A stretch of 64,000 nt of DNA from an uncultured Elusimicrobiaceae bacterium (GTDB lineage: Bacteria > Elusimicrobiota > Elusimicrobia > Elusimicrobiales > UBA9959): contig CAYQJX010000004.1 of the NCBI GenBank assembly GCA_964417965.1, forward strand, positions 52,405-116,404. Reading direction: 5' to 3'. A program made the translations under genes and the position numbers. Below, in pieces: positions 17,681 to 50,245 of the stretch (the stretch's first letter is position 1; each line of letters begins with the position of its first letter). The notes under the pieces are model-generated. The model searched no databases and had not been told where the DNA came from. It saw nothing but the letters and a program-made list of their open reading frames with translations.

Positions 17681-17683
17681 CTT

Positions 17684-32518: not shown

Positions 32519-33610
32519 CTACTGCAGGATGAACAGGTCTTTCGTGACCGTATACCGGCCCGAGAGCCAGTCCGTTATCTCGCGGGCGGCGGCCGCCGTG
32601 TCGTTCTCCCTGGCTTCCAGAAATTCCGAATAGTCGTTCTTCAGCGACTCCTTCTCCCCGTCCGTCAGGACGTCGAGCCCCTTGTCCATGAACGCCGGCA
32701 GGTCCCGCTCCAGCAGCTCCGCCATGTCGTGACAGGTCACCATACCGGCGGCCTTGCGGAAAGCTTTAACCGGATCGTAGGCGGCCCCCTTCTCGTACGA
32801 GGCCTTCAGGGTCAGCAGCACTATCTTGGACAGCGCGGCCTGGTTCATCGGGTTCACCGCGTGGGCGGCCAGCTGCCCGGCCATCTCGGCGGGGCGGCCG
32901 GTGAAGGGCCGCAGGTGAAGGAACTTGCACATGCGGGGCCCGTCGTTGACGGGGTAATTATCCCAGAGGAAAGGCTTGCGGCCCAGCTGCTGCGCGGCGG
33001 CGGCGAGGCTCTCCGGGGTGTAGGATTTGGAACAGACCTGTTCCCCCGTCCAGAACATGCTCACCCTGGGGGCCAGGGCCTTCCCCAGCTGGTCGAAATA
33101 GCCGGCCGGCATCTTGCCGAAGAGCTTCTCCAGGACCGGGTCCAGGGAATAATAGGTGGGGCAGAAGACCAGCTGGCGGGCCTTGGAGCGCTCGGCTATC
33201 CAGTTGACGATCTCTATCTGGCGCTCCGCCAGAGCAGGCAGGTCGCCCTTCATGTCGTCCATCAGGATGCCCAGTTTGTCCACGCCTATGCGGTTGAAGG
33301 CGTCTATCTTATGCTGCAGCAGCTTCTTGGCTTCGGCATCGAAAGGCGTGAGGTAGATCTCGTAAGGGCTGAAGCCGACGCCGAACTCTATGCCGGCGGA
33401 ATGGCACTGCCCGGCCAGTTTGGTCAGCTTCTCCTCGTGCACCTTCGGGAAAGGTTCGCGCCACTTCTTGCGCAGGTAGGGGTCGCCCTTGGGGGCGTAG
33501 ATATAGAACGAGAACCCGTGCTTGCGCAGGAAATTGGCGTAATCGGCGCGTTCGCCCCAGCTCCAGGGCTCTCCGTAAAAACCTTCTATTATTCCGGTAG
33601 TGGTGTTCAT
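32519..33610 (-). CDS. GH84-like beta-N-acetylglucosaminidase (O-GlcNAcase family catalytic domain)
   Basis: GIIEGFYGEPWSW...FYIYAPKGDPYLR... and a DD pair in LGILMDDMKG, typical of the GH84 TIM barrel. Confidence 0.7.
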   Translation of the reverse strand: MNTTTGIIEGFYGEPWSWGERADYANFLRKHGFSFYIYAPKGDPYLRKKWREPFPKVHEEKLTKLAGQCHSAGIEFGVGFSPYEIYLTPFDAEAKKLLQHKIDAFNRIGVDKLGILMDDMKGDLPALAERQIEIVNWIAERSKARQLVFCPTYYSLDPVLEKLFGKMPAGYFDQLGKALAPRVSMFWTGEQVCSKSYTPESLAAAAQQLGRKPFLWDNYPVNDGPRMCKFLHLRPFTGRPAEMAGQLAAHAVNPMNQAALSKIVLLTLKASYEKGAAYDPVKAFRKAAGMVTCHDMAELLERDLPAFMDKGLDVLTDGEKESLKNDYSEFLEARENDTAAAAREITDWLSGRYTVTKDLFILQ

Positions 33611-35031: not shown

Positions 35032-35277
35032 TCACTGCCTGACTATTTTTACACCGTTGTACTCGATCCAATCCAGCGAAAGCGGGCTTAAGATGGCGTT
35101 AGCCGGGACCGTTACTGTCCTGTCTCCCGGCCGGCACAGCCGGCGCAGCTCCCAATCGCTCAGGAAGACCTTTTTTACCGGCGCGCCGGCCTTTTTCCGC
35201 GCGGGCGCGGCGCCTGCCCCCTCGTTCCGGGAAAGGTGCTCAGCGATAAGGTCTTCTACCGCGCCCTTGGTAAACAT
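35032..35277 (-). CDS. Small BMC-associated protein (encapsulation-peptide-like N-terminus + short C-terminal domain)
   Basis: 81 aa. Amphipathic GAVEDLIAEHLSR, then an Ala/Pro/Lys linker, then FLSDWELRRL...VTVPANAILSPLSLDWIEYNGVKIV. The last part resembles the short N-terminal module seen on some BMC-locus enzymes (recollection). It fills an otherwise empty same-strand gap. Confidence 0.5.
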   Translation of the reverse strand: MFTKGAVEDLIAEHLSRNEGAGAAPARKKAGAPVKKVFLSDWELRRLCRPGDRTVTVPANAILSPLSLDWIEYNGVKIVRQ

Positions 35278-35307
35278 TCGCTGCCGTCCGGCCGGGGGCC
35301 GGGGCTA

Positions 35308-35604
35308 TTAAGAGACCTTTACCGAGATCCTGGCCAGGTACTTGTCCAGGTCGTCGGCGGGGCGCGGTATCACGTGCATCCCGCACAGCTCCCCGACCTT
35401 CTGGGCGGCGGCGGCGCCGGCTTCCACGGCGGCGCGCACGGCGCCGACTTCGCCCACGCACAGCGTGGTCACGTAGCCGGAGCCTATCTTCTCGTAGCCG
35501 AGCAGGCGCACCTTGGCGGCCTTGCTCATGGCGTCAGAGGCTTCGATCATACCGATGAAACCCTTAGTCTCTATCATTCCCAGCGCTTCTTTCGGTTCGG
35601 ACAT
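35308..35604 (-). CDS. BMC-H shell protein (PduA/EutM/CcmK family, Pfam00936)
   Basis: [57 protein letters not shown]...HVIPRP. Confidence 0.9.
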
Positions 35605-35627
35605 AGTAGCTCCTTGTTATCGCTAAA

Positions 35628-36608
35628 TTAGTACTGCCCTTTGGCGGCCTCGCCGCCGGAAACTATGGCTATGCTGGCGCTCGTGCCGAGGCGCGTGGCG
35701 CCGGCCTTGATCATGGCCGCGGCCACTTCGGCGTTCTTGATGCCGCCGGAGGCCTTCACGCCCATCTCGGGGCCCACGGTCTCGCGCATCAGGGCGATGT
35801 CCTCGGGAGTGGCGCCTCCGGAGCCGAAGCCGGTGGAGGTCTTCACGAAGTCGGCCTGCGCGGCTTTTGACATTTTGCAGGCGCGGATCTTCTCGTCCTT
35901 GGTAAGATAGGAAGTCTCCAGGATCACCTTGAGCGTTTTGCCGCGCGTGGCGTCGCGCACCGCTTTTATGTCGTCCTGCACCAGCTGGTCGTTGCCGCTC
36001 TTGAGCGCGCCGATATTGATGACCATGTCTATCTCGTCGGCGCCGTTGGCTATGGCGTCACGGGCCTCTATGGCCTTCACGGTCGGGGTCGTAGAGCCAA
36101 GCGGGAAACCGATGACGGTGCAGACCATCACATTGGAGCCGCGCAGCAGGCGGGACGACAGCGCCACGTAGCCGGGGTTAACGCAGACGGAGGCGAAGCG
36201 GTACTTGCGGGCCTCCTCGCAGAGCTTGCCGATCTCTTCCTGCGTGGCGTTGGCCTTGAGCAGGGTATGGTCGATCATGCCGGCGATGGAAGAGCTGGAT
36301 TCGTTGGGGTTGCAGAAAGTCACGCGGTCGGCGGTAGCCTTTATCTGCTGCGGGGTGTATTTATTGAGCGGGTTGCAGCTCTGGCAGGAGGAGGAGCAGG
36401 TGTTCTCTTCGAGCCGGCAATCGCCCTGGCCGGAGCAGGCCTTCTTCTCGGCGGCGCCGGGCTTGTTGACCAGCGGGTGCTGGAACACCTTGCCGGACGA
36501 GCCTATGCTCACATTGTCGCCGAGGGTCTGCCTCGGGGCGGGAGACCCGCCGGCCTTCATGATCCTGGCCACCTCGGCCGCGATTTTCTTTATATCTTCG
36601 TCGTTCAT
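35628..36608 (-). CDS. deoC: Deoxyribose-phosphate aldolase (DERA/DeoC) with ~105-aa N-terminal extension
   Basis: The DERA core begins at [15 protein letters not shown] and includes FASVCVNP and the Schiff-base region DFVKTSTGF. The N-terminal extension carries an EP-like helix and a Cys cluster. Confidence 0.85.
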
Positions 36609-36609
36609 A

Positions 36610-36888
36610 TTAGCCTCGCTTGTCGATGTGAACTTTATCCACTATGCCGGCTACCACGGTGCGCACCGGCGCCTTGGAGTTCTTTAAAATTTTCCGGGCG
36701 GAACCGCCCTCGTCCACTATCAGCACGGTGTCGCCCACGCCCGCGCCCTGGTTGTCTATCACCAGCTGGGCCTCGCCCGCGAACTCGCCGTCGGCGCCCA
36801 GCGGCCTGGCCAGCAGCATGGTGGCGTTCTTCAGCCCCGGGTGCCGGCGCGTTGCCCAGACGTTTCCAATGACTTTAGCTACGAACAT
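36610..36888 (-). CDS. BMC-P vertex protein (EutN/CcmL/PduN family, Pfam03319)
   Basis: [30 protein letters not shown]...[23 protein letters not shown]...[12 protein letters not shown]. Confidence 0.9.
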
Positions 36889-36892
36889 AAAA

Positions 36893-37189
36893 TTAGTTGA
36901 ACTTCTTCCCGTCTATTATTCCCACTATCGCAGCGTCCACCGGCGGCGGGGCCGCCTTCACGGCGGTTTCCCCTTCCCAGCCTTCGAAAGCCAGGATGGC
37001 CTCGCGCGAGGCGACGAAGAAAACCGTTTCCCCCGCCCCGGCGCCTACGGTGTCGCCGGCTACCAGCGGGTCGCCCGACGGCTTGTCGGTCTCCCAGTCG
37101 AGCGGCTGTATCAAAAGCAGGGTCTTCGACTCCATGCCGCAGCACTGGCGGGAGCAGAAAACCCTTCCTATGACCTTGGCCTGTTTCAT
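36893..37189 (-). CDS. BMC-P vertex protein paralogue (divergent, with insertion)
   Basis: MKQAKVIGRVFCSRQCCGMESKTLLLIQPLD...VAGDTVGAGAGETVFFVAS...VDAAIVGIIDG. It has an extra FEGWEGETAVKAAPPP segment. Confidence 0.85.
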   Translation of the reverse strand: MKQAKVIGRVFCSRQCCGMESKTLLLIQPLDWETDKPSGDPLVAGDTVGAGAGETVFFVASREAILAFEGWEGETAVKAAPPPVDAAIVGIIDGKKFN

Positions 37190-37190
37190 T

Positions 37191-37637
37191 TCAATAGCAC
37201 TTCTGTTCTATCGCGGTGATCTTGTCGAGGCGCTTCTGGTACTTGCCGCCTTCGAAAGGGGTATTGAGCCAGACCTTGATCATCTCCTCGAGGGCCAGCT
37301 CGCCGTGCGTCTTGCCGCCGAGGCAGAGCACGTTGCAGTCCTCGTGCGCCGCGGCGAAGCGGGCCGAGATGGTGTCATAGGCGGCCACGGCGCGGATGCC
37401 GTGCACCTTGTTGGCGGCCAGCGGCATGGCCCCGTTGAAGCCGTCCACCAGCACGGCCTTGTCGAATTCCTTGCGGCGCACGGCCTCGCTGACGAGCAGG
37501 GCGATGTCCGGGAAATCCACCGGCTCCACGGAGTAACAGCCAAAGTCGGTAACGTCGTGGCCGAGCTTCTGCAGGAACTTCTTAAGCCGCTCCTTAGCCT
37601 CGAAACCAGCGTGATCCGCGCCTATGACGATCCTCAT
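37191..37637 (-). CDS. rpiB: Ribose-5-phosphate isomerase B (RpiB/LacAB family)
   Basis: MRIVIGADHAGFEAKE...GCYS...VDFPD...NKVHGIRAA...HEDCNVLCLGG. Confidence 0.9.
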   Translation of the reverse strand: MRIVIGADHAGFEAKERLKKFLQKLGHDVTDFGCYSVEPVDFPDIALLVSEAVRRKEFDKAVLVDGFNGAMPLAANKVHGIRAVAAYDTISARFAAAHEDCNVLCLGGKTHGELALEEMIKVWLNTPFEGGKYQKRLDKITAIEQKCY

Positions 37638-37647
37638 AAATTCTCTC

Positions 37648-38196
37648 CTATATGGCCGCGCCGAGATGTTCGTGCGCGTTGGGTATCACTATGCGGCTCA
37701 CTACCGCGTCCTCGCCTATGGCCTTAACGCCGGCGGCCACCGCGGTGCGCACGGCGCCGGGCTCGCCCACGACGGTGAAGTAGCCTTTGCCGCCAATGCC
37801 CTTGCCGGTGTTCACTTCGGCCACGTGCACGAAGGCGGCCTTGGCGGCCGCGTCGGCCGCGAACAGCGCCGGCAGGGCCTCCTTGGTCTCCACTATGCCC
37901 ACGGCCTCTATGCTGGCGGGCTTAACTTTCTTGTTGAGCGCGGCCAGCGCGCCGGCGTGGACGTTGCGGATGATGTGGCGCGCTATGAGCGTGTTGCCCG
38001 CTATCTCGGCGCCTTTGGCCAGCGAGGATTCCACCTCGCCGACGGGGCCGGAGAGCACTATTATGTATTTCCCCTTGGAGATCGCCTGGTGCACCTCGGG
38101 CTTTACGCCCGCGGCCTTGCACATGGCGTCCAGCGTCTCTATGCCCTTGGCTATCGAGGAAAGTTCCATCAAACCTATGGCAATGTTGGCCTGCAT
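37648..38196 (-). CDS. BMC-T shell protein (tandem Pfam00936, PduT-like; Ser at the PduT Cys38 position)
   Basis: Two BMC domains, IAIGLMELSSIAKGIETLDAM... and IEAVGIVETKEALPALFAADAAAKAA.... The start is taken at MQANIAIG. The ISKGKY motif stands where PduT has ICPGKF. Confidence 0.85.
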   Translation of the reverse strand: MQANIAIGLMELSSIAKGIETLDAMCKAAGVKPEVHQAISKGKYIIVLSGPVGEVESSLAKGAEIAGNTLIARHIIRNVHAGALAALNKKVKPASIEAVGIVETKEALPALFAADAAAKAAFVHVAEVNTGKGIGGKGYFTVVGEPGAVRTAVAAGVKAIGEDAVVSRIVIPNAHEHLGAAI

Positions 38197-38207
38197 ATAA
38201 ATTCTCC

Positions 38208-39620
38208 TTAAGCTATCCTGAGGTCGCCGACTACGCTGCACTGCAGCGGGCGCACGAAATGGCTGGTCTTGGTGATGCCGTCTCCCGTCGGGGTGCCGAT
38301 GGACATGGAGGCGTAGCCCTCGCCGAGGCCGAGGCCGTGCAGCGTGCAGCCGTTCTTGACGAAGATGGAGCAGGCCATGCGGCGGCCCATCTTGGTCATG
38401 TTCCTGATATTGGTGGAATACATCCCGGCCGAGTGGTGGTTCTCCCCCTCGGCGAAACGCGCCAGTTCTATGGCCGCGTCCACGTCCCTGGCTACCGTGA
38501 CCGGCAGCACCGGCATCAGCTGCTCGCTGACCACGAAGGGGTGGTCGTTCGGGACTTCCGCCCAGAGCACCCGGATCTCGTCGGACAGGGTCAGGCCGAT
38601 GGCCTTGGCGATAACGGACGGGTTCTTGCCGATGAAAGAGCGGTTCACCTTGGGCTCGCGGCCGGGTTCCAGTATTGCCAGCTTGGTCAGCTGGTCCATC
38701 TGGGGGCCGGTCAGCTCATAGGCGCGGGCGTCGGAGCGCATGGCTTCCAGGAAGCGGGAGCGCGCGGCCTCGGTCACTATCACTTCCTTCTCGGCGATGC
38801 AGAGCACGTTGTTGTCGAAGCCGCAGCCGTAAATTATTTCCTTCGCGCAATCCGGGAAGACCGCGGTCTCGTCCACCACTATCGGCGGGTTGCCGGGCCC
38901 GGCGGCTATGGTCTTGCAGGGCTTGCCGGAGGTCATGGCCACTTTTACTATGGCCGGGCCGCCGGTGACTATGTTCATATGGGTGTTCGGATGGGACAGC
39001 AGCTGCTTGGTGGCTTCCTGGGTCGGGTTGGCTATGGTGGTGACCAGGTTGGCCGGGCCGCCGGCGGCGACGATGGCGGAATTGAGGACGCGCACGGCGT
39101 CGGCCACACAGCCCTTGGCGGCGGGATGAGGAGAGAAGACGACGGCGTTGCCGGCGGCGAGGATGCCGATGGCGTTAGAGATGATGGTGGCCACGGCGTT
39201 AGTAGACGGCGTAATGGCCGCCACCACGCCGAAAGGGGCGTATTCCACCAGGGTAAGGCCCTTGTCGCCGGTATAGGACACGGCGCGCAGGTCTTCCACG
39301 CCCGGGGTCCCGTCGATGCAGACCATGTTCTTGAGGACCTTGTCCTCCACCCGGCCCATGCCGGTCTCGGCCACGGCCAGCTCGGCCCAGCGGCGGGCGT
39401 TGGCGCGGGAGACTTCGCGCATGGCGGCTATGATCTTTTCGCGCGCCACCAGGCCCAGGTCCTGGAAGCCGGGCTGCGCGGCGTTGGCGGCGGCTACCGC
39501 CTGGTCGACGGTGTCGAACACGGGGCCGCCGGCGGCGGCCGGGGACGGGGCGTCCGCGGCGCCGAGGCTGCGCACCACCTCGGTCACTATCTTTTTAAGG
39601 TCTTCTTCGCTTATGGGCAT
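38208..39620 (-). CDS. CoA-acylating aldehyde dehydrogenase (PduP/EutE-like) with N-terminal encapsulation peptide
   Basis: ALDH fold with catalytic-Cys context FDNNVLCIAEKE. The N-terminus MPISEEDLKKIVTEVVRSL is followed by an Ala/Pro/Gly linker. Confidence 0.85.
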   Translation of the reverse strand: MPISEEDLKKIVTEVVRSLGAADAPSPAAAGGPVFDTVDQAVAAANAAQPGFQDLGLVAREKIIAAMREVSRANARRWAELAVAETGMGRVEDKVLKNMVCIDGTPGVEDLRAVSYTGDKGLTLVEYAPFGVVAAITPSTNAVATIISNAIGILAAGNAVVFSPHPAAKGCVADAVRVLNSAIVAAGGPANLVTTIANPTQEATKQLLSHPNTHMNIVTGGPAIVKVAMTSGKPCKTIAAGPGNPPIVVDETAVFPDCAKEIIYGCGFDNNVLCIAEKEVIVTEAARSRFLEAMRSDARAYELTGPQMDQLTKLAILEPGREPKVNRSFIGKNPSVIAKAIGLTLSDEIRVLWAEVPNDHPFVVSEQLMPVLPVTVARDVDAAIELARFAEGENHHSAGMYSTNIRNMTKMGRRMACSIFVKNGCTLHGLGLGEGYASMSIGTPTGDGITKTSHFVRPLQCSVVGDLRIA

Positions 39621-39628
39621 AAGAGAGA

Positions 39629-39937
39629 CTAATCCTGGAATTTGTCGGCCGACTTCTTGAACACCACCTTGCCGTCCTTCTCTATGGTGTCGACTATCGC
39701 GAAGACGGTGCAGTCCACCGGCGTATTCTCGGTCTTTGAAGTCTGGCGGGCGCTGGAGCCCTGCACCAGCAGCACCAGTTCCCCGGTGCCGGCGCCCACG
39801 GCGTCTATAGCGACGAGCGTATTGCCGCGCGGCTTATCATCCAGGCCCACCGGCTGCACCATCAGCAGCTTGGTGCCGACGAGCTTGTCGTCCTTGCGGG
39901 TACAGACCACGTTGCCCACTACTCGTGCGAATAGCAT
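39629..39937 (-). CDS. BMC-P vertex protein (third paralogue)
   Basis: MLFARVVGNVVCTRKDDKLVGTKLLMVQPV...VAIDAVGAGTGELVLLVQGSSAR...DCTVFAIVD. Confidence 0.9.
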   Translation of the reverse strand: MLFARVVGNVVCTRKDDKLVGTKLLMVQPVGLDDKPRGNTLVAIDAVGAGTGELVLLVQGSSARQTSKTENTPVDCTVFAIVDTIEKDGKVVFKKSADKFQD

Positions 39938-39957
39938 GAATCCTCCGTCAGGGAATG

Positions 39958-39985
39958 GGCGCGGGGGCTTGAAGCCCCCTGCGCC
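39958..39985 (-). other. GC-rich intercistronic hairpin between BMC-H and BMC-P genes
   Basis: On the minus strand ggcgcagggggc-ttcaa-gcccccgcgcc gives 5+6 bp with one bulged A. No U tract follows. It is followed by a GGAGG Shine-Dalgarno and the BMC-P ATG. Confidence 0.45.
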
Positions 39986-39998
39986 GCGTTAAGCCCTT

Positions 39999-40283
39999 TT
40001 ACTTCTTTTTGGCTTCGCTTATCGGCAGTTTGCCTTCCAGGTCGCCGTGAGGCTGCGGGATCACGTGCACGCTCACCAGCTCGCCCACTTTCTGGGCGGC
40101 GGCGGCGCCGGAGTCGCAGGCGGCGCGGCAGGCGGCCACTTCGCCGCGGAAAAGGATGGTCACGAGGCCGGAGCCGATCTTTTCGTAGCCGACTATCTTC
40201 ACGTTGGCGGCTTTCACCGCGGCGTCGGCCGCTTCCACACAGGCCACGAGGCCCTTGGTTTCTATCATTCCGAGTGCGTCCAT
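39999..40283 (-). CDS. BMC-H shell protein (PduA/EutM family)
   Basis: [59 protein letters not shown]...HVIPQP. Confidence 0.9.
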
Positions 40284-40319
40284 ATTCCCTCCAGTGTAAC
40301 TAGACTAAAATACCGAAAA

Positions 40320-40952
40320 TCAGACTATGTAGGCCGGGTCGCAGTTCTTCAGGCCGGCGGCGTTGGCCTCTTCCACGTCCAGGTGCAGCTCCAGCGAGTA
40401 GGCGTCGGAGACGCGGCACAGCACCCGCTCGTAAATGGTCTCCCGGTCGGTGCCCCGGCCGCAGAGCACGCGCACTTCCTGGCCGTCGCGCACCTTGTAA
40501 GCCGCGCCTTCCTTCACGTTGAAATGGATATGCCGCTTGGACAGGATCAAGCCCTGCGGAATCGTGACGGAGCCTTTAGGCCCGACCAGTTTTACGCCCG
40601 GGGAATTGGCCAGCTTGCCGGAGTCGCGGATAGGCGGTTCCACGCCGAGGCGGCGCGCGTCGCCCAGCGACACCTCCACCTGGCTGTACTTCCGGTACGG
40701 CCCTATCATCCGGACGTCCTTGAGGGCGCCTTTGGGGCCCTCCACCGTCACCCGCTCGTTGCAGGCGTACTGGCCCGGCTGCTTTACCGGCTTGAGCTGC
40801 GTGTCGTCGCAGTCGGTCCCGAAGAGGGTCTTAAAATCTTCCTTCGTCAGGTGCACGTGCCGGTTGGAGACGCCTACGGGGATGGGCAGGGCAGAACGCT
40901 CCTGCCTGAGCTGCAGGTCCTGGAGTATTTCGCCGAGTAGCTTTTCGTTCAT
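40320..40952 (-). CDS. pduL: Phosphate acyltransferase PduL (PTAC) with EP-like N-terminus
   Basis: IPVGVSNRHVHLTKEDF..., a second half KRHIHFNVKEG, and GPYRKYSQVEVSLGDARRLG. N-terminal helix MNEKLLGEILQDLQL. Confidence 0.85.
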   Translation of the reverse strand: MNEKLLGEILQDLQLRQERSALPIPVGVSNRHVHLTKEDFKTLFGTDCDDTQLKPVKQPGQYACNERVTVEGPKGALKDVRMIGPYRKYSQVEVSLGDARRLGVEPPIRDSGKLANSPGVKLVGPKGSVTIPQGLILSKRHIHFNVKEGAAYKVRDGQEVRVLCGRGTDRETIYERVLCRVSDAYSLELHLDVEEANAAGLKNCDPAYIV

Positions 40953-40961
40953 TTTAATTTT

Positions 40962-41741
40962 TTACCGGCTCAGCGCCTGCTGGAAATGTATCACGCGCAG
41001 GAACTTGTCGGCCTTGAGGCTCTCTCCGCCCACCAGCGCGCCGTCGATATCGCCCTGGGCCATCAGCTCGTCGATGTTGTCGGCCTTCACCGAGCCGCCG
41101 TAGAGGATGCGCACGGCTTCGGCGTAATCCTTGCCGTAGATGCGCTCCATCTGCTTACGCACAAAAACGTGGGCGTCCTGCGCCTGGTCGGGGGTGGCGG
41201 TCTTGCCGGTGCCTATGGCCCAGACGGGTTCGTAGGCTATTACCACCTTCGCGGCTTCTGCGGCCGTAATGCCGGCGAAGGCGCCGGTCAGCTGGGTCTC
41301 CAGCACGCGGTAGGTTTTCTGGCTCTCGCGCTCTTCCAGCGTCTCGCCGATGCAGAGCACGGGCACGATATTGGCCTTTATGGCGGCTTTCATCTTCTTG
41401 TTGACGACCTCGTCGGTCTCGAGGAAGATCTTGCGGCGCTCGGAATGCCCGATGAGGGCGTGGGTGCAGCCCGCGTCTATGATCTGCGACGGGGACACCG
41501 CGCCGGTGAAGGCGCCCTTTTCCTCCCAGGCTACGTCCTGGGAAGAGAGGAAGATCTTCGAGCCGGCGATGGCGGCTTTTACCGCGTGCAGGTTGGTGAA
41601 AGAGGGGGCGAGCAGCACCTCGTGCTTGAGGTCCGGGTCCAGGCCTTTCTTCATGGCGGCGGCCAGGTCGGCGGCCTCCTTGGAAGTCAGGTGCATCTTC
41701 CAGTTGCCGGCTATCATCGGGATTCTTTTGTGGGAAGCCAT
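40962..41741 (-). CDS. tpiA: Triosephosphate isomerase
   Basis: IAGNWKMH, GHSERR and AYEPVWAIGTG. Confidence 0.92.
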   Translation of the reverse strand: MASHKRIPMIAGNWKMHLTSKEAADLAAAMKKGLDPDLKHEVLLAPSFTNLHAVKAAIAGSKIFLSSQDVAWEEKGAFTGAVSPSQIIDAGCTHALIGHSERRKIFLETDEVVNKKMKAAIKANIVPVLCIGETLEERESQKTYRVLETQLTGAFAGITAAEAAKVVIAYEPVWAIGTGKTATPDQAQDAHVFVRKQMERIYGKDYAEAVRILYGGSVKADNIDELMAQGDIDGALVGGESLKADKFLRVIHFQQALSR

Positions 41742-41788
41742 TTTCGGGTCTCCTTATAATTAATCAAAAAGATTATACAAATAATGGG

Positions 41789-42337
41789 CTAAATTATTTC
41801 CCGCAGCAGCTCCTGCCTGGGCTGGGGAATGACCACCTTCTCCACCAGCAGGCCTTTTTTGCCGGCTACGGCGGCGCCGGCGGCCACGGCGGTTTCAACA
41901 GCGGCGACGCTGCCGGTCATAGTGACGAAAGCTTTGCCGCCCAGCGCCATGGCCAGGCGTATCTCCAGGAGTTTCACATTGCCGGCTTTTACCGCCGCGT
42001 CGGCGGCCTCTATCAGGGCCGCGACCGAAAAAGCTTCTATAATGCCCAGGGACTCAAGACCGTCCACCACGGTGGTGCCTTCTATGGCCGGGAAAACCTC
42101 CGGATGTATGTTGGGGATAACAAAGCTGTCCACCAGGGAATGCGCCGCCTTTGCGGAGCCGGCTTCAACGGCGGCGTTAACGGCGCCGACATCGCCCGCG
42201 ATAAGCGCGATGTATTTGCCCGCGCAGATGGACCGCGAAAGTATCAATTTGATATCCGCGGTTTTCAGCATGGCGTCGGCCGCCTCCATGCCCTTGGCCA
42301 CACTGGAAAGTTCAACACCGCCTATTGCGTTTAGCAT
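41789..42337 (-). CDS. pduT: BMC-T shell protein, PduT-like with conserved Cys38
   Basis: Tandem BMC domains. LILSRSICAGKYIALIAGDVGAV aligns with Salmonella PduT [20 protein letters not shown], whose Cys38 is the 4Fe-4S ligand. Confidence 0.85.
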   Translation of the reverse strand: MLNAIGGVELSSVAKGMEAADAMLKTADIKLILSRSICAGKYIALIAGDVGAVNAAVEAGSAKAAHSLVDSFVIPNIHPEVFPAIEGTTVVDGLESLGIIEAFSVAALIEAADAAVKAGNVKLLEIRLAMALGGKAFVTMTGSVAAVETAVAAGAAVAGKKGLLVEKVVIPQPRQELLREII

Positions 42338-42344
42338 AAAGACC

Positions 42345-43688
42345 TTAAGCGATTATCTCCACATAGCGTTCGTTTACCTTGCCGACGGTGCCGGAGATGC
42401 TGGCGTGCACCGGGCAGCCCAGTTTGTCGGCCGGGACGTCCCCCACCACGGCGCCCTTCTCCACCCGCTGCCCCTCTTTGACGGAGGGCACGCAGGGAAC
42501 GCCGATATGCTGGCTCATTAAAATTTTCACCTTGCCCGGCTTATAAACGGCGTCGCTCCACGGCGCGGCCTTGTTGTAATCGTCCAGGCCCAGGCGCCGC
42601 ACCAGTTTTGAAACAGGCACCTTGCGGAAATCCCTGACAGGGTGCACTTCCGGCTTAACCCCGGTGTTAAGCTGCGAATTCTTGAAGCCCATCTTCTGCT
42701 CCCGCAGGTCGCTCTTGGCCGCGACGCAGGCCTCGCGCGGGTGCAGGCCCTCGGGACAGGAGTAGAGCGAGCACAGGGAGCACTCGCAGCACAGCAGGCC
42801 GTACTGGCTGTGCAGTTTATGTTCCGGCCCGCCGGCAAAAAGCATGGTGCGCATCACGCGGTGCGGCTGCACGTTGTGGCCCAGCAGGTAGCGCGGGCAG
42901 AACTCGGTGCAGAAAGAGCACTGGTCGCAGGCGGAGCGGCCGACGCGGGTGAAAACGGGGCGGCTCTGCGCCTTTTTGACTATCAGCGGATGGCTTTTCG
43001 GCAGCACTATGATGCCGGAGGAGGCCTTCATCACCGGCAGGTCGAAATCGGTCTGCACCTTGCCCATCATCGGGCCGCCGTCTATATAAGCGGGGTCCTT
43101 AACGGTGAAGCCCCCGCAGAGTTCCACGGCCTCCCGCCAGGTTATCCCTACCGGCACGCGGAAGGTGGCGGGTTTCTTTACCCCGCCGTTGACGGTTATG
43201 AAAGTTTCGGTGACCGGGCGCGGCGCGAGGGCGGCGTTATAGAGCGTCTCCACGTTGACCACCACGCAGCCCACTTCCAGCGGGAGGCCGCCGGGCGGCA
43301 CTATCCGGCCGGTGGCCTCGTAGACCAGGCACTGCTCGTCGCCGGCGGGGTAGTAATCGCCCATTTCAAGGACGGAAATGTTTTTGCGGGACTTCGCTAT
43401 TTCTTTAAGGCGCGGGATGATCTTTTCGTGTTTCTTTTTGATACCGACCACGCCTTTGGACGCGCCCACGGCGCCCATCAGCAGCTCCAGCCCGTCGAAG
43501 ACCTGCTCCGGAAAATATTCCAGGATCTTCTGGTCCTTCTTGAGCAGCGGCTCGCATTCGGCGGCGTTGACCAGCGCGAACTCGGCCGTCCCCTGCGCTT
43601 TCACGTAGGAGGGAAAGCCCGCGCCGCCGGCTCCAACAACGCCGGCGGCACGAAGGTTTCTGCTGAATTCAGCTGAGGTTTGGGACAT
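42345..43688 (-). CDS. RnfC/PduS-like flavo-iron-sulfur oxidoreductase
   Basis: GVVGAGGAGFPSYVK (51K-type NAD/FMN site), an SLBB-like region, and two ferredoxin motifs CDQCSFCTEFCP and CCECSLCSLYSCP. The C-terminal segment is RnfC_N-like (HIGVPCVPSVKEGQRVEKG...VHASISGTV). Confidence 0.8.
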   Translation of the reverse strand: MSQTSAEFSRNLRAAGVVGAGGAGFPSYVKAQGTAEFALVNAAECEPLLKKDQKILEYFPEQVFDGLELLMGAVGASKGVVGIKKKHEKIIPRLKEIAKSRKNISVLEMGDYYPAGDEQCLVYEATGRIVPPGGLPLEVGCVVVNVETLYNAALAPRPVTETFITVNGGVKKPATFRVPVGITWREAVELCGGFTVKDPAYIDGGPMMGKVQTDFDLPVMKASSGIIVLPKSHPLIVKKAQSRPVFTRVGRSACDQCSFCTEFCPRYLLGHNVQPHRVMRTMLFAGGPEHKLHSQYGLLCCECSLCSLYSCPEGLHPREACVAAKSDLREQKMGFKNSQLNTGVKPEVHPVRDFRKVPVSKLVRRLGLDDYNKAAPWSDAVYKPGKVKILMSQHIGVPCVPSVKEGQRVEKGAVVGDVPADKLGCPVHASISGTVGKVNERYVEIIA

Positions 43689-43699
43689 TCAGTAGTTGT

Positions 43700-44929
43700 T
43701 TATTTTGAGGTCACCAGGCGCTTCTTGACCGCGGCGGCGAGACGCTTTATGCCCTCGTCTATCTTTTCCGGGCTGGCGAACGAGAAGTTCAGGCGCATGG
43801 TGTTCTTGCCGGAGCCGTCGGAGTGGAAAGCCGAGCCTATCACATAGGCCACGTTCTCCTTGAGCGCGTCCTGGAACATGTCGTCGGCGCTCATCTGCTC
43901 GGGCAGGCGCACCCACAGGAACAGGCCGCCCTCGGGGTTGGTCCAGGTAACGCCTTCCGGCATATACTTCTCCAGGGCTTCGATCATGGTATTCTTCTTG
44001 ATCCGGTAGTCTTTCTTGACCACCTCGATGTGTTTCTCGAAGAAGCCGGAGCGCAGGAACTCGGCGGCTATCAGCTGGTTGAGGCTGGAGGTGCAGAGGT
44101 CGAGCGACTGCTTGAGGATCTCCATCTTTTTAATGATCTGCTCGTGGCCCAGGATGATCCCGAGGCGCAGGCCCGGGGCGAAGGTTTTGGAGAAGGTAAA
44201 CAGCGAGATGATGTTGTCGGTCTTCTTGGTCTCTTTGTCCAGGCGGTAGAGCATCTTGGGCTCTTTGCCCTCGAAGCGGATCTGGCGGTAGGGAGAATCC
44301 TCGATCACGGCGACGTTATATTTATCGGACAGCTCGATGATCTTCCGGCGCTTCTCCTCGGACAGGGTGACGCCGCTGGGGTTCTGGAAATCCGGGACCA
44401 GGTAGAGGAACTTGTAATGCTCGTCCTGGGCGTGCAGCCACTCGAGCTTTTCCTGCAGCTCGTCGGTGCTGATGCCGTCGTCCTCCAGCTTGACGCCGAT
44501 GAACTCCGCGCCGTAGGAGCGGAACACCTGCAGCGCGCCCATGTAGCTGGGCTTCTCCACGATGACCGGGTCGGAGGCGTCGATGAACAGGCGGCCCACC
44601 ATGTCCAGCGCCTGCTGGCTGGCGGTGGTGATGATGAGGTTCTCGGGCTTGGCGTCTATGTTCTCGTACTTCTTGAGGAACTTTATAAACTCTTCTTTCA
44701 GCTCCGGCAGGCCGTCGGTCGGGCCGTACTGCAGCGCCACCCGGCCTTTCTTGGCCATGATCTCCTTGACGGTATCGGCCACGAAATCGTAAGGGAAATG
44801 TTCGGGGGCGGGCAGGCCGCCGGCGAAGGAGATGATGCCGGGCTGGTTGGTGGTCTTGAGGAGTTCCCGGATCACGGAAGCTTTGGTGCGCCGCGGGGTG
44901 GTGGCGATATTCTTAGCGATGTCGATCAT
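43700..44929 (-). CDS. PLP-dependent aminotransferase, class I/II
   Basis: FAGGLPAPE, a fold-type I pattern, and the PLP-Lys context FTFSKTFAPGLRLG. It lies 11 nt upstream of the RnfC-like gene on the same strand. Confidence 0.8.
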   Translation of the reverse strand: MIDIAKNIATTPRRTKASVIRELLKTTNQPGIISFAGGLPAPEHFPYDFVADTVKEIMAKKGRVALQYGPTDGLPELKEEFIKFLKKYENIDAKPENLIITTASQQALDMVGRLFIDASDPVIVEKPSYMGALQVFRSYGAEFIGVKLEDDGISTDELQEKLEWLHAQDEHYKFLYLVPDFQNPSGVTLSEEKRRKIIELSDKYNVAVIEDSPYRQIRFEGKEPKMLYRLDKETKKTDNIISLFTFSKTFAPGLRLGIILGHEQIIKKMEILKQSLDLCTSSLNQLIAAEFLRSGFFEKHIEVVKKDYRIKKNTMIEALEKYMPEGVTWTNPEGGLFLWVRLPEQMSADDMFQDALKENVAYVIGSAFHSDGSGKNTMRLNFSFASPEKIDEGIKRLAAAVKKRLVTSK

Positions 44930-44969: not shown

Positions 44970-44998
44970 AATCTACTTAATTAAAGATACGGTTTCAA
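44970..44998 (-). promoter_or_regulatory. Putative promoter upstream of aminotransferase/BMC gene string
   Basis: On the minus strand: TTGAAA (44993-44998), 17 nt, TAGATT (44970-44975). It lies in an AT-rich 89-nt gap. A GGAGGA Shine-Dalgarno precedes the ATG. Confidence 0.3.
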
Positions 44999-46823: not shown

Positions 46824-48302
46824 CTATTTATTGAACCTGGCCTCCAGCGGGGCGAGGAGCCAGCCAAGGGTGAAGGTGGAGACGGTGCCGATCACGATGA
46901 CCCAGCTCCAGCCGATAGGGGCCAGGCCTTTCTCCGAAAGATAGAGCACCAGCCCCGCCAGCCCCGCGCTGAACAGCATAGCCACCACGTTGGAGCGGTT
47001 AGCCGCGCGCTTGGTCATCAGGCCCAGCAGGAACACGCCCAGCAGACTCCCCGCCGTAACCCCGTTGATCTTGAAAGCCAGCCACAACATGCGCCCCGAG
47101 CCCGCCGCGCACAGCCACGCTATCCCCGCCAGCAGCAGCCCGAAGCAGGCCACGCTGACGCGCGACACCAGCAGGTAATGCCGCTCGGCGGCGTCCTGCC
47201 GGATGAGCGGCCGGTAGATATCCGTGACGAAGGACGACGACAGCGAGGAGAGCGGCGAGTCTATGCTCGCCAGCACCACCGCCGCCAGCACCAGCCCCTT
47301 CAGGCCCGCGGGCAGCACGTGCACGGTGAAATGCGACAGGATCTTGTCGGCGTTCTCCGGCAGCGGCAGCCCCGGGTTCTGCCCGTAGAAGGCGAACAGC
47401 AGCGTCCCGAGGGCCAGGTACAGCCAGGTCACCGGGAAGCTGGTAAAGATGGTGAGGATCAGCGTCTTCTGGCTCTCGCGGCGCGTCTCCAGCGTCAGCA
47501 GGCGCTGCATCAGCTCCTGGTCCGTGCCGAAGGCCGCCATCGAGCCGAACACGCCGTTGAGCACCGCCGCCCACAGCAGGTTCGGGTCCTTCATCCCCCA
47601 GCCTATGTTGAACACCGACAGCTTGCCGGCTTCCGACGCCAGCTGCCAGGCGCCCGCCAGGCCGCCGTCGATATGCAGCACCAGGTAGCCCGCCACCGCG
47701 GCGCCGGCCACGTAGAAGATCACCGTCTCGAAAGCGCCGGTCCACATGACGGCCTTGATGCCGCCGAAGCCGATAAAGACGATACTGACCAGCGTAAAGA
47801 ACGCTATGGTATAGCCGAGCTGCCAGCCCATGATCACCGACACCGCCAGGGACGCCGCATACAGCCGCACGCCGGAGGCGAACAACCGCGTGACGAAGAA
47901 GAAGGCCGAGCCCGCGTACTGCGTCTGGGGCCCGAAGCGGTGCTTGAGGAACTCGTAGATGGTGGTGCAGTTGAACTTGTAGAAAGCCGGGATGAAGAAG
48001 AAGGCGATCAGCACGCGCGCCGACGCCGAGCCGATGAAGAACTGCAGGTACTGCCAGTTCTCGGTGTAGCCGATGGGCGGGATGCCCACTATGGTCATGG
48101 CGCTTATCTCGGTGGCCACAAAGGAGAGCGTTCCCACCCAGACCGGCGTCTTGCGGTTGCCCAGGAAATAGTCCTTCGTGTCCTTTTCCCCCCGCCCTTT
48201 CACGAAGGCGATGACGAACAGGGCTATGACGGCGGCCCCGAGTATGCCGTAATCCAGCGGGGCCAGCCCGGTTATCTGCTGCAAGGATGCGATCTCGTTC
48301 AT
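46824..48302 (-). CDS. Sodium:solute symporter (SSS) family transporter
   Basis: 492 aa with about 13 hydrophobic helices and SSS-like motifs (GRKTPVWVGTLSFVATEISAMT...). ATGA overlap with the upstream GH3 gene. Confidence 0.85.
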   Translation of the reverse strand: MNEIASLQQITGLAPLDYGILGAAVIALFVIAFVKGRGEKDTKDYFLGNRKTPVWVGTLSFVATEISAMTIVGIPPIGYTENWQYLQFFIGSASARVLIAFFFIPAFYKFNCTTIYEFLKHRFGPQTQYAGSAFFFVTRLFASGVRLYAASLAVSVIMGWQLGYTIAFFTLVSIVFIGFGGIKAVMWTGAFETVIFYVAGAAVAGYLVLHIDGGLAGAWQLASEAGKLSVFNIGWGMKDPNLLWAAVLNGVFGSMAAFGTDQELMQRLLTLETRRESQKTLILTIFTSFPVTWLYLALGTLLFAFYGQNPGLPLPENADKILSHFTVHVLPAGLKGLVLAAVVLASIDSPLSSLSSSFVTDIYRPLIRQDAAERHYLLVSRVSVACFGLLLAGIAWLCAAGSGRMLWLAFKINGVTAGSLLGVFLLGLMTKRAANRSNVVAMLFSAGLAGLVLYLSEKGLAPIGWSWVIVIGTVSTFTLGWLLAPLEARFNK

Positions 48303-49831
48303 TTTATCTCCGTAGCTGAAAGTTCCACAGGTACCCGCCCCTTAGCCTCACCGGTCCCGGCGAGGACCCGCGCCGCGGCCTCCTGGAATTCCTTGAGGGC
48401 GCAGAAAGCGCAGAGCCCGGCCGCGGGCGCGGGTGAAAGCCCGGCCAGGACGAAAGGGCTGCCGAAAGCCGCGATCACGGAACCGGCCGAACCGGCCACC
48501 GCCGCCTCCAGAGCGTACCTTTCTTCCGGCGAAAGATTTATGGCGCCGCTTCCCGCCCTCGGGCGCGAGAAGACCCCGGCGGCCAGGCGCATGCCGCAGC
48601 CGGGCCGGTAAGGTTCCACCCTGACGCCGAGGCGCAGCAGCTCGTCGGCGAAGGCGCGGCCCCGCCAGGCCTCCGGCCTGGTGAGCGGCTCGAAATAACC
48701 TACGGTGTCCCCGGCCTTTACCCTGAAATTTTTTTCACCCCAGGCCCAGGCCAGGCAGGCCGGCGCGGCTTCGGCGTTGAAGGCGCGGTGCTCGCGGCAG
48801 CCGGCCGTAGAGAAAGGCGGCGGCGCGGCGCGGAAGGGCGAAAGCTTGCGGACCAGCAGGTCCTGGCGGGCCAGCGCCAGCTCCACGGCGGCCCCGGCAA
48901 TCAGCCCGTCGTTGGCCGCCCCGGCCAGCGCCTCATGCAGGGCGAAAGGGTCCTCGGGATAGAGCAGCACGTCCGCCCCGGAGAGGAAGGCCTTCACCCC
49001 GGCCCGGCCCTCGTCCGAGATGGCCTTCATGTTCAGCGCGTCCGTCAGCACCAGCCCGGCGTAGCGCAGCCGCCCGCGCAGCAGGTTCCCTATGATCTCT
49101 TTCGAGAACGAGGCGGGCGCGGCGGCGTCCACGCCGGGGAAGGACAAGTGCCCGACCATTATGGAGTCGGCCTGCGCCGACAGGGCAGCGAACGGGCGCA
49201 GGTCTTTTTCTTCCAGGTCGTTCAGGCTGCCTTCCAGCACCGGCAATTCAAGGTGGGAATCGGCCGAGGTACTCCCGTGGCCCGGGAAATGTTTAAGGCA
49301 GGCCAGCGCGCCCTGGGAGCGCATACCGGAAAGGTAAGCCCCGGCCAGGCGCGAGACCAGCGCCGGGTCAGCTCCGAAAGCGCGCACGTTGACGATAGGG
49401 TTATCGGGGCGGGAAGCAAGGTCCACCACCGGGGCTAACACCCAGTCCACGCCAAGTGCTTTGGCCTCGAGGGCCGTTATCTCCCCTTTGCGGCGGGCCA
49501 GCGCCTCGGAACCCGAGGCGCCTATGGCCATATTGGACGGCAGTTCGGTGGCGCCGGCCACCCACTGGCCGGGCCCGTTCTCGTAATCGGAAGCGATGAG
49601 CAGGGGCGTTTCGGAGGCGGCCTTCAGCGCGCGCGAGGCCTCCAGCACCTCCCCGGCCTTCCCGCCGTAAAAACAGAAACCGCCTACGCCGAGCTCCACC
49701 AGCTTCAGGGCGTAGTCCGGGTCGGTGACGCCGAACCTGTATTCAGGATAGATCAGCCGGGCCAGCTTCCGCGGGTTCAAGCCTTCTTCCCCCGCGCCCG
49801 GGCCTTCTCCGCCTTCTTTATTTTTTTCCAC
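48299..49831 (-). CDS. nagZ: Glycoside hydrolase family 3 (NagZ-like beta-N-acetylhexosaminidase) with C-terminal extension
   Basis: The GH3 N-domain contains KHFPGHG and VGHL. The ATG at 49831 overlaps mazG by 55 nt, so the true start may be an internal TTG near 49777. Confidence 0.75.
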   Translation of the reverse strand: MEKNKEGGEGPGAGEEGLNPRKLARLIYPEYRFGVTDPDYALKLVELGVGGFCFYGGKAGEVLEASRALKAASETPLLIASDYENGPGQWVAGATELPSNMAIGASGSEALARRKGEITALEAKALGVDWVLAPVVDLASRPDNPIVNVRAFGADPALVSRLAGAYLSGMRSQGALACLKHFPGHGSTSADSHLELPVLEGSLNDLEEKDLRPFAALSAQADSIMVGHLSFPGVDAAAPASFSKEIIGNLLRGRLRYAGLVLTDALNMKAISDEGRAGVKAFLSGADVLLYPEDPFALHEALAGAANDGLIAGAAVELALARQDLLVRKLSPFRAAPPPFSTAGCREHRAFNAEAAPACLAWAWGEKNFRVKAGDTVGYFEPLTRPEAWRGRAFADELLRLGVRVEPYRPGCGMRLAAGVFSRPRAGSGAINLSPEERYALEAAVAGSAGSVIAAFGSPFVLAGLSPAPAAGLCAFCALKEFQEAAARVLAGTGEAKGRVPVELSATEIK

Positions 49832-50220
49832 TCGCGCAGCACCTGCGCCGGCGTCTTCAGCTTTCCCGCCAGCTTTTCACCTCCGAAAACGTGCGGGTGG
49901 CGGCGGACCAGCTTGGCGTTCACCGTCCGGATCACGTCGGCCAGCTTAAAGCGGCCGTCCCGCTGAGCCAGCGCGCTGTGGAACACCACCTGCAGCAGCA
50001 CGTCGCCAAGTTCCTCTTTCAGGTTGGCCCAGTCCTTCCTGCGGACGGCGCGGGAAACCTCCCCCGACTCTTCGCGCAGGTATTTGAGCAGCGTGGAGTG
50101 GGTCTGCCGGCGGTCCCAGGGGCAGCCGCCGGGCGAAAGCAGTATTTTCATGATCTCAGCGAGGGACGCCAGGCTGGAGCTGCGCGCCAGCCGAGCGCCC
50201 TTTCTTTTCATTTTTTTCAT
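49777..50220 (-). CDS. mazG: MazG-family nucleoside triphosphate pyrophosphohydrolase
   Basis: CPWDRRQTHSTLLKYLREESGEV...ELGDVLLQVVFH...VRRHPHVF. Confidence 0.85.
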   Translation of the reverse strand: MKKMKRKGARLARSSSLASLAEIMKILLSPGGCPWDRRQTHSTLLKYLREESGEVSRAVRRKDWANLKEELGDVLLQVVFHSALAQRDGRFKLADVIRTVNAKLVRRHPHVFGGEKLAGKLKTPAQVLREWKKIKKAEKARARGKKA

Positions 50221-50245
50221 AAGTCCCGGTTCGCCGCTTTTAATA

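Follow-up and report, generated by a model that had tools for sequence, protein, structure and literature searches.

What does a bacterial microcompartment (BMC) process when none of the enzymes that define the classical compartments is encoded with its shell? The question is raised by positions 35032-44929, minus strand, of a 64-kb stretch of DNA from an uncultured Elusimicrobia bacterium; this whole stretch, the DNA that was analysed, is called the window below. An earlier note, made from the letters of this DNA alone, had assigned the locus to the sugar-phosphate utilization (SPU) class, with deoxyribose-phosphate aldolase (DERA) as the aldehyde-generating signature enzyme and with an acylating aldehyde dehydrogenase (AldDH) plus the phosphotransacylase (PTAC) PduL as the metabolic core. 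Both statements are upheld by the overall composition and by the intact DERA residues. The composition fits one particular subtype, SPU1, point by point, and we consider it highly probable that the locus is an intact SPU1-type operon that degrades deoxyribose-5-phosphate (dR5P) by the mechanism proposed below. It is a clean and complete SPU1 example rather than a new kind of system, and bears out what has been published. Both its type and, in practice, the locus itself are already catalogued, and SPU1 is the rule in Elusimicrobia.

Composition and conservation of the locus

According to the listing of open reading frames (ORFs) and a gene map based on GC content at third codon positions (GC3), 15 close-packed genes form one unbroken minus-strand string from 44929 down to 35032, with intergenic gaps of 1-61 nt. 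Gene identities were assigned with Pfam and NCBIfam, and the Pfam E-values of the locus genes (1e-20 to 1e-93) exclude chance. The string comprises two BMC-H, two tandem BMC-T and three BMC-P shell genes, together with genes for DERA, an RpiB-like protein, triosephosphate isomerase (TPI), acylating AldDH, PduL, a PduS/RnfC-like flavo-FeS protein, an aminotransferase and an 81-residue product. In reading order these are:

43700-44929, minus strand: class I/II aminotransferase dependent on pyridoxal phosphate, 409 aa (PF00155, E=4.6e-43)
42345-43688, minus strand: MNdh, PduS/RnfC-like NADH dehydrogenase (PF01512, PF10531, PF13534 and PF13375)
41789-42337, minus strand: BMC-TSE, PduT-like tandem BMC shell protein, 182 aa (two PF00936 stretches; TIGR02526 eut_PduT, 1e-36)
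40962-41741, minus strand: TPI, 259 aa, no terminal extension (PF00121, E=6.8e-93, residues 8-252)
40320-40952, minus strand: PduL-type PTAC, 210 aa (PF06130, E=1.9e-68, from residue 25)
39999-40283, minus strand: BMC-H, 94 aa, KAAN/PQPH interface type (one PF00936 domain, E=2.2e-28)
39629-39937, minus strand: BMC-P, 102 aa, the pentamer paralogue adjoining AldDH (PF03319, E=3.1e-32)
38208-39620, minus strand: CoA-acylating AldDH, 470 aa (PF00171 from residue 37; NF011927, 565 bits)
37648-38196, minus strand: second tandem shell protein (BMC-Ts), 182 aa (two PF00936 stretches; pore motif ISKGK, no pore Cys)
37191-37637, minus strand: RpiB-like protein, 148 aa, no N-terminal extension (PF02502, E=5.3e-44)
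36893-37189, minus strand: BMC-P, 98 aa, one of an adjoining pair (PF03319, E=4.7e-21)
36610-36888, minus strand: BMC-P, 92 aa, the other of the pair (PF03319, E=3.2e-25)
35628-36608, minus strand: DERA (DeoC), 326 aa, signature enzyme (PF01791; TIGR00126 deoC equivalog)
35308-35604, minus strand: BMC-H, 98 aa, KAAK/PRPA interface type (one PF00936 domain, E=2.9e-26)
35032-35277, minus strand: orf81, conserved gene for a small protein of 81 aa (no Pfam match)

Both shell folds are clustered within 9 kb, four genes carrying PF00936 and three PF03319. A tblastn search with every shell protein revealed no additional BMC-domain gene in the 64-kb window, so the shell count is exactly seven. The three BMC-P paralogues share 33-39% pairwise identity, and the two that form the adjoining pair are separated by 4 nt. 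For the second BMC-Ts the ORF tool begins the gene at a GTG (38241); we favor the ATG at 38196 as the likely true start because the resulting 182 aa equal the length of the orthologue in a related locus, L082 (GCA_028713125.1). Neither diol dehydratase, EutBC, a glycyl-radical enzyme nor RuBisCO was found among the window genes scanned, and the locus itself encodes no alcohol dehydrogenase. The inventory given in the earlier note is thus confirmed in nearly every respect. Pfam reproduces its gene identities; the PF00936 and PF03319 matches yield its shell count of two BMC-H, two BMC-T and three BMC-P, to which tblastn adds nothing; Pfam and NCBIfam recover its six enzymes (DERA, RpiB, TPI, AldDH, PduL and the RnfC/PduS-like protein); and the single uninterrupted minus-strand string and the absence of classical signature enzymes hold as well. 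The only amendment is that the span also contains two genes left unnamed there, the aminotransferase at the 5' end and the 81-aa ORF at the 3' end.

The subtype follows from the published catalogue. SPU compartments were first defined as a class by Axen et al. 2014 (PMC4207490). Sutter et al. 2021 (Nat Commun, PMC8217296) raised the number of loci above 280, divided among seven subtypes, and in their Supplementary Data 2 list 62 SPU1 loci, exclusively from Elusimicrobia. According to the same work (PMC8217296), SPU1 loci have DERA and RpiB adjoining two BMC-P genes, a BMC-P triplet, AldDH, PTAC and TPI, and two BMC-H proteins whose interfaces are KAAK/PRPH and KAA(N/D)/PQPH, while PduS/T is found in satellite loci of some SPU1 genomes. 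Our locus agrees with SPU1 in the following: an Elusimicrobia host, DERA and RpiB beside two BMC-P with the third elsewhere, AldDH, PTAC and TPI, two BMC-H of the KAAK and KAA(N/D) types, two BMC-Ts of which only the PduS-adjacent one has the pore Cys, and no BMC-Tdp in the 64-kb window. The differences are minor, namely PRPA in the KAAK BMC-H, one residue off the PRPH of SPU1, and CAGK instead of CPGK in the pore of BMC-TSE; in addition, the catalogue text on SPU1 mentions neither the terminal 81-aa gene nor the upstream aminotransferase. The BMC-T tree of the catalogue includes the 182-aa PduT-like protein of Elusimicrobia bacterium GWF2_62_30 with the labels bestHMM=Ts_asparagus_SPU1-Elusimicrobia and bmcType=SPU1 (main) (PMC8217296), and our DERA is 99% identical to the shortened NCBI model from that organism. 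The SPU1 assignment was made by the published description and this label.

The string is conserved well beyond the window. Comparison loci were collected by a genome scan with DERA, tblastn mapping and look-ups via orf81 homologues. Seven SPU1 loci, all of divergent Elusimicrobia, are full-length (the window, L082, L002, L005, L085, L086 and L087), and two are partial (L001 and L003). DERA identity in tblastn falls to 54-55% among them (L003, L002). All seven full loci share the order TPI-PduL-BMC-H-BMC-P-AldDH-BMC-T-RpiB-BMC-P-BMC-P-DERA-BMC-H-orf81, with small ORFs occasionally inserted, and the order is partly kept in the two partial loci. The earlier note had named a lack of co-conservation between shell and enzyme genes as a finding that would tell against its reading; the opposite was found. 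Measured against L082, dN/dS ranges from 0.05 to 0.24 for all 15 genes and from 0.05 to 0.18 for the seven shell genes. Gene content, gene order, co-conservation and purifying selection are direct observations on this DNA and its relatives. Base composition and GC3 of the string agree with those of the flanks, and no sign of recent transfer was seen.

Among the SPU1 loci compared, the block of aminotransferase, MNdh and BMC-TSE upstream of TPI is restricted to the window and L082; MNdh/BMC-TSE is absent within +/-10 kb in L002, L005, L085, L086 and L087. A simpler arrangement was encountered in the AT-rich Elusimicrobium sp. SulCav (L006:7816-10684, DYLH01000030.1), where aminotransferase, TPI and DERA follow one another with no BMC genes in between. 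Their identities to the window proteins are 84% for the aminotransferase, 66% for TPI and 71% for DERA over the barrel; this DERA has no N-terminal extension, and the contig stops 117 nt past its gene. The arrangement looks like an SPU1 locus before the gain, or after the loss, of the compartment-specific genes.

The predicted pathway and its rivals

The case for dR5P begins with the aldolase. DERA scores 295 bits on the TIGR00126 deoC equivalog model (cutoff 117), and its residues D194, K256 and K285 align with D102, K167 and K201 of E. coli DeoC (MG1655). The same Asp and two Lys are invariant across 48 homologues, and the catalytic residues are, judging by these alignments, intact. Full-length homologues number in the hundreds, at 59-98% identity, and all organism-named ones are from Elusimicrobia; the same origin holds for every named homologue of DERA or orf81 at ≥50% identity.

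Residues 1-105 of DERA constitute an N-terminal extension that is found neither in E. coli DeoC nor in the shell-less L006 DERA and that is conserved in the 48 homologues. It consists of a helix resembling an encapsulation peptide (EP) at residues 3-19, the conserved motif IGxxGKVF and a stretch rich in Cys, after which the DeoC TIM barrel follows. AlphaFold2 (AF2) predicts the helix, assigns low confidence to residues 21-105 including the Cys-rich stretch, and models the barrel with pLDDT >90. The helix is strongly amphipathic, with a hydrophobic moment (muH) of 0.69, and leads into a linker rich in Ala, Gly and Pro. It resembles the N-terminus of AldDH, where an amphipathic EP helix, EDLKKIVTEVVRSL (muH 0.73), is likewise followed by an Ala/Pro/Gly linker. 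These terminal extensions, like the catalytic residues, can be read directly from the genes. Dwyer et al. 2024 pointed out that DERA start sites are a problem and that SPU DERAs carry EP-like extensions once the start is corrected (PMC11585597). We noticed the same in several NCBI models of Elusimicrobia SPU1 DERAs (P0076, P0079, P0080, P0091 and others), which are shortened to 216-236 aa and have lost the extension of about 100 aa. The 2021 text on SPU1 states that the DERA extensions 'do not resemble EPs', whereas the full-length start used here gives strongly amphipathic first 19 residues, in agreement with the 2024 revision. The extension has six cysteines between residues 58 and 99 (C58, C64, C71, C75, C78 and C99); among the 48 homologues C75 and C78 are at least 90% conserved, and C99 is invariant, as is the IGxxGKVF motif. 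Metal binding by the Cys-rich stretch is possible, but we make no such claim because the AF2 fold is not confident over residues 21-105.

The oxidative core is equally recognizable. In the PDB, AldDH matches best to 5jfl, a BMC aldehyde dehydrogenase (E=1.5e-110); the motif FDNNVLCIAEKE around the catalytic Cys is aligned as well. PduL scores 238 bits on NF011652 (cutoff 209), and a short N-terminal helix precedes its PTAC domain. MNdh combines an FMN/NADH domain (Complex1_51K), an SLBB domain, two [4Fe-4S] clusters (Fer4_17) and, at residues 383-443, an RnfC_N domain permuted to the C-terminus. Its best PDB match is RnfC (7zc6, E=2.9e-52), aligned over residues 7-321 only. By these domain matches, the order of domains is the circular permutation published for MNdh (PMC11626177). 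The gene lies 7 nt from that of the PduT-like BMC-TSE, which has Cys38 in its pore motif, ICAGK; the BMC-TSE orthologues in L082 and L010 have ICPGK, in line with the published consensus CP(G/S)K. The PduS/PduT pair has been re-characterized as MNdh/BMC-TSE, an NADH dehydrogenase by which electrons are conducted across the shell and the NAD+ needed by AldDH is restored (PNAS 2024, PMC11626177). Within our locus, MNdh/BMC-TSE is the only NAD+ recycler encoded.

In the mechanism that we propose, the seven shell proteins (two BMC-H with complementary interfaces, two BMC-Ts and three BMC-P) would form a shell, and dR5P derived from the breakdown of deoxynucleosides or DNA would enter it. DERA would cleave dR5P to give glyceraldehyde-3-phosphate (G3P) plus acetaldehyde, acylating AldDH would convert acetaldehyde into acetyl-CoA and NADH, and PduL would turn acetyl-CoA into acetyl-phosphate, recycling CoA in the lumen. 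Because no alcohol dehydrogenase is encoded, the regeneration of NAD+ is assigned to MNdh, from which electrons would travel via two [4Fe-4S] clusters to a pore cluster held by Cys38 of BMC-TSE and further to an outside acceptor. TPI would interconvert G3P and dihydroxyacetone phosphate, and the RpiB-like protein would act as a partner of DERA without isomerase activity. The N-terminal amphipathic helices of AldDH, DERA, PduL and probably orf81 would serve encapsulation; TPI and the RpiB-like protein carry no EP, and we merely assume that they are enclosed too. Enzyme activities, encapsulation, shell assembly, flux direction and substrate we infer from homologues.

The neighborhoods of related loci supply independent support, at the level of gene context, for a nucleotide-derived substrate. 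In L002, L005 and L087 a gene for a UshA-like 5'-nucleotidase (PF00149+PF02872) closely precedes the core string. Between it and TPI there is a HAD-IIIB acid phosphatase gene in L002 and L005, and a gene for 198 aa with no Pfam match on record in L087. The pair of nucleotidase and phosphatase is missing from the window lineage. The regions concerned are:

L005:549-3864: 5'-nucleotidase/phosphatase region
L002:2455-4568: 5'-nucleotidase/phosphatase region
L087:957-3030: 5'-nucleotidase region

The role of the RpiB-like protein deserves separate consideration. Its catalytic segment VDGFNG aligns with iCGTGlG of Clostridium thermocellum RpiB (3he8), so that Cys is replaced with Asp and Thr with Phe. 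The 'DG' is present in 11/11 BMC-linked RpiB-like orthologues checked, and the only RpiB-family match retaining the Cys is a distant homologue in L004 (32% identity). The earlier note let RpiB handle sugar-phosphate products; that it does so as a normal isomerase is unlikely, with catalytic Cys and Thr both missing. At the same time, the gene has dN/dS of 0.12 relative to L082, indicative of purifying selection. With its catalytic pair lost, the protein is most likely a structural partner of DERA and not an isomerase of ribose-5-phosphate (R5P).

Might it nevertheless be active on something else? If Asp acts as the catalytic base, the RpiB-like protein could be an isomerase of a different or additional sugar phosphate, whose product would then be cleaved by the DeoC-type aldolase, and dR5P would not be the entry metabolite. 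The universal retention of the gene beside DERA, its low dN/dS, and an Asp replacement that is invariant and not degenerate would all be accounted for; moreover, Dwyer et al. describe ribose-5-phosphate isomerases (RPIs) as broad in specificity and leave the role of the protein unexplained (PMC11585597). Nonetheless we regard this reading as unlikely, given an aldolase that lies far above the deoC equivalog cutoff with all DERA catalytic residues kept, the replacement of both Cys and Thr in RpiB, an SPU6 homologue that acts on dR5P while its RPI is inactive on R5P, and 5'-nucleotidase neighbors that point to nucleotide-derived substrates. The second idea of the earlier note, a condensing (anabolic) DERA that joins acetaldehyde and G3P into dR5P or other aldol products with TPI supplying G3P, fits poorly with the rest of the locus. 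Acylating AldDH and PduL make up an oxidative core, MNdh/BMC-TSE oxidizes NADH and exports the electrons, and the conversion of acetyl-CoA into acetaldehyde would need the very NADH that MNdh removes. The 5'-nucleotidase context in related loci also indicates catabolism, and bacterial deoxyribose is made via ribonucleotide reductase, not DERA. Even granting that TPI is encoded in the locus and that the DERA reaction is reversible in vitro, we consider synthesis in this direction very improbable.

Still less credence can be given to the idea that the locus is a relic or builds no organelle, its genes serving as ordinary cytosolic enzymes. The L006 lineage, which keeps the aminotransferase, TPI and extension-less DERA with no shell genes between them, could be seen as a precedent. 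Here, however, none of the 15 ORFs is disrupted, their spacing is tight, purifying selection acts on them all, the seven shell genes included, the encapsulation extensions are kept on AldDH and DERA, and the string is conserved across divergent Elusimicrobia.

A dR5P-degrading SPU1 organelle remains the reading we prefer, yet a number of points weigh against it. The SPU1 organelle is known from genes alone and the enzyme activities of this locus are predicted; in a search of the literature from 2024 on (microcompartment, deoxyribose, SPU), the study of Dwyer et al. 2024 and the 2025 Hodarchaeales preprint came up beside two unrelated papers, and we met with no isolation or imaging of a native SPU organelle. 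Neither the electron acceptor nor the source of dR5P is encoded in the window, where genes for dR5P supply (phosphopentomutase, nucleoside phosphorylase, deoxyribokinase) and for acetate kinase are absent. The pore motif of BMC-TSE is CAGK, with Pro changed to Ala at residue 39, not the canonical CP(G/S)K, although the Cys is retained. Inspection of the termini of TPI and the RpiB-like protein revealed no EP, and the dN/dS of the latter is also compatible with some catalytic role.

The terminal small gene and the surroundings

The orf81 family is the only element of the locus that is not catalogued, which makes it a modest lead. The gene closes the string in every full locus, its position being the same in L002, L005, L082, L085, L086 and L087, and has dN/dS of 0.24 relative to L082. 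Its homologues fall into 94 clusters at 90% identity, all hypothetical proteins, the organism-named ones all from Elusimicrobia; a profile built from distant members matches 318 clusters. The protein starts with a conserved EP-like helix, MLTKGAVEDLIxEHL (AF2 helix 4-17), continues in the alignment with a variable linker rich in Ala, Gly and Pro, and ends in a conserved domain of about 45 aa, VFLSDWELRRL..PG...V.VPANAI.SPLSLDWL.YNG (AF2 pLDDT ~85).

This domain weakly matches the C-terminus of TIGR02536 (E=5.7e-4, below cutoff), an uncharacterized 'ethanolamine utilization protein' family of Firmicute ethanolamine utilization (EUT) loci. An exhaustive profile search uncovered two longer, clear TIGR02536 relatives, P0314 and P0321 (E=6.8e-37 and 8.4e-15), with the domain at their C-terminus, and a metagenomic protein of 283 aa, P0312, in which an orf81-type domain of ~45 aa stands N-terminal to a class II aldolase (PF00596). 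These occurrences suggest an unnamed BMC-associated domain family without a Pfam model. For orf81, searching PDB sequences with a profile returned matches at chance level only (best E=0.73), and when the AF2 model was compared with PDB structures by Foldseek, no hit fell below E=0.3. In a 2026 structure-prediction atlas, a Listeria TIGR02536 protein is proposed to dock on the EutL shell trimer. By its sequence features, orf81 is a putative small shell-associated adaptor or cargo component. That it represents an undescribed Elusimicrobia-wide accessory component of SPU1, and that metabolosomes in general may use its domain for docking to the shell or as a cargo adaptor, we put forward tentatively, with more doubt than conviction.

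At the opposite end of the string, the aminotransferase gene ends 11 nt before MNdh in the same orientation. It is kept upstream in L082 and absent from L002, L005, L085, L086 and L087, and so lies outside the conserved SPU1 core. It is probably co-transcribed with the string, given the short distance to MNdh and a sole promoter-like site that is located upstream of it:

44970-44998, minus strand: candidate sigma-70-like promoter, TTGAAA-17-TAGATT (consensus match only)

The candidate sits in an AT-rich gap of 89 nt, and a GGAGGA Shine-Dalgarno sequence follows it. At the other end, no convincing intrinsic terminator was found between orf81 and the downstream TPR and GH84 genes, the count being equal to that in shuffled sequence. 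Rfam at gathering thresholds detected no RNA elements in the whole window, hence no riboswitch that might point to the inducer.

The flanks comprise hrcA-grpE-dnaJ and genes for an SDR protein, GH84, a TPR protein, an SSS transporter, GH3, MazG, ThyX, leuS, murJ, topA, dprA and a comM-like gene. No deoA/B/D, deoxyribokinase, nucleoside transporter, acetate kinase or regulator gene was found in the window flanks. The aminotransferase, the downstream TPR protein and GH84 are lineage-specific neighbors and are not counted in the system. Some flanking genes relate to the scavenging of amino sugars, namely a GH84 beta-N-acetylglucosaminidase downstream (32519-33610) and an SSS-family symporter and a NagZ-like GH3 protein upstream (46824-48302 and 48299-49831); MazG and ThyX, of nucleotide metabolism, are at 49777-51000. 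About 30 kb from the BMC locus there is a class II aldolase (PF00596) of 304 aa (4961-5875, minus strand). Some SPU subtypes have class II aldolases among their cargo, and we considered this one as satellite cargo; the idea was dropped, as its C-terminal extension shows no signature of a linker plus amphipathic helix and no obvious EP. Likewise rejected was the suspicion that 19.6-21.5 kb, next to a DnaA-ATPase-like gene, is poor in ORFs or contains oriC: the region is covered by an ORF of 673 aa and shows no enrichment of DnaA boxes.

In several Elusimicrobia a block of genes recurs downstream of the SPU1 locus. It encodes a PilT-like T2SSE ATPase, an unknown protein, a protein with a DnaA-ATPase domain that is not canonical DnaA, a histidine kinase with a GAF domain, CsgG and a ComM-like Mg-chelatase:

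L085:10392-20255: recurring downstream block
L087:10286-18725: recurring downstream block
L005:11920-15932: recurring downstream block
L086:10351-20354: recurring downstream block
Window 9290-19579: recurring downstream block

The window has DnaA-like, CsgG, ComM-like, LysM and DprA genes in this region, separated from the BMC locus by about 15 kb containing hrcA-grpE-dnaJ, SDR, GH84, TPR and other genes. The block probably reflects ancestral synteny, and a link to DNA uptake is speculative. Other SPU1 loci have additional small ORFs without assigned function within the string, none of which is present in the window (L085:4940-5796 and 8480-9657; L005:8576-9160 and 11006-11314; L087:9296-9622). 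Such insertions include genes for 134 and 144 aa that follow AldDH, one for 93-108 aa that separates DERA from the last BMC-H and, in L085, a member of the inositol-monophosphatase family.

Relation to known compartments

SPU compartments are among the most widespread metabolosomes and are thought to let bacteria grow on deoxyribose from DNA in the environment, the toxic acetaldehyde being kept contained. To this picture our results make small additions: the 5'-nucleotidase neighbors, a conserved small EP-bearing protein absent from the catalogue text, and the shell-less L006 arrangement, which gives a hint about the gain or loss of the locus. As to native substrate, role of the RPI homologue and electron acceptor, the locus offers no better testability than the published model loci, since its host is uncultured.

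The remark in the earlier note that no experimentally characterized member of the class is known is outdated, with SPU6 DERA and RPI and the MNdh/BMC-TSE pair studied in 2024 and archaeal SPU-type shells in 2025. The closest biochemical counterpart is SPU6 of Chloroflexi bacterium GWB2_54_36, whose purified DERA cleaves dR5P and forms complexes with RPI (Dwyer, Sutter & Kerfeld 2024, Commun Biol, PMC11585597). That RPI is essentially inactive on R5P, and the Cys-to-Asp replacement is common to all SPU RPIs (PMC11585597). Our locus shares with SPU6 the N-terminal extension and the D/K/K residues of DERA, the Cys-to-Asp change in RPI, acylating AldDH, the BMC-P triplet and dR5P as the predicted entry metabolite. 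SPU6, on the other hand, has no PduS/MNdh, mostly no PTAC, a single BMC-H, BMC-Tdp, a C-terminal EP on AldDH and an N-terminal EP on RPI, whereas our locus encodes MNdh/BMC-TSE, PduL and TPI, has an RpiB without extension and lacks BMC-Tdp.

The electron-exporting part resembles the characterized MNdh/BMC-TSE module (PMC11626177) in having the same four domains with RnfC_N at the C-terminus, an adjoining PduT-type BMC-Ts with Cys at position 38, and co-occurrence with AldDH in a locus without alcohol dehydrogenase. The characterized pair is from Clostridium botulinum and has CP(G/S)K; the Elusimicrobia pair is known from genes alone and has CAGK here. With the EUT and propanediol utilization (PDU) compartments the locus has in common the AldDH plus PduL/PTAC core, N-terminal EPs on cargo and a shell of H, T and P proteins. 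It differs from them in using DERA instead of EutBC or PduCDE, in having no B12-related genes and no alcohol dehydrogenase, and in encoding three BMC-P instead of one. Finally, SPU-type compartments have been described in Hodarchaeales, where shells self-assemble and cargo recruitment in vitro is EP-dependent (bioRxiv 2025, PMC12747264). A Myxococcota origin of the loci, a fusion of DERA with a flavoprotein and a DNA-binding disordered tail on one BMC-P are peculiar to that system, the latter two having no equivalent here. The underlying logic of DERA, AldDH, MNdh with a BMC-Ts (CPGK in the archaeal proteins), PTAC and RPI is the same in both.

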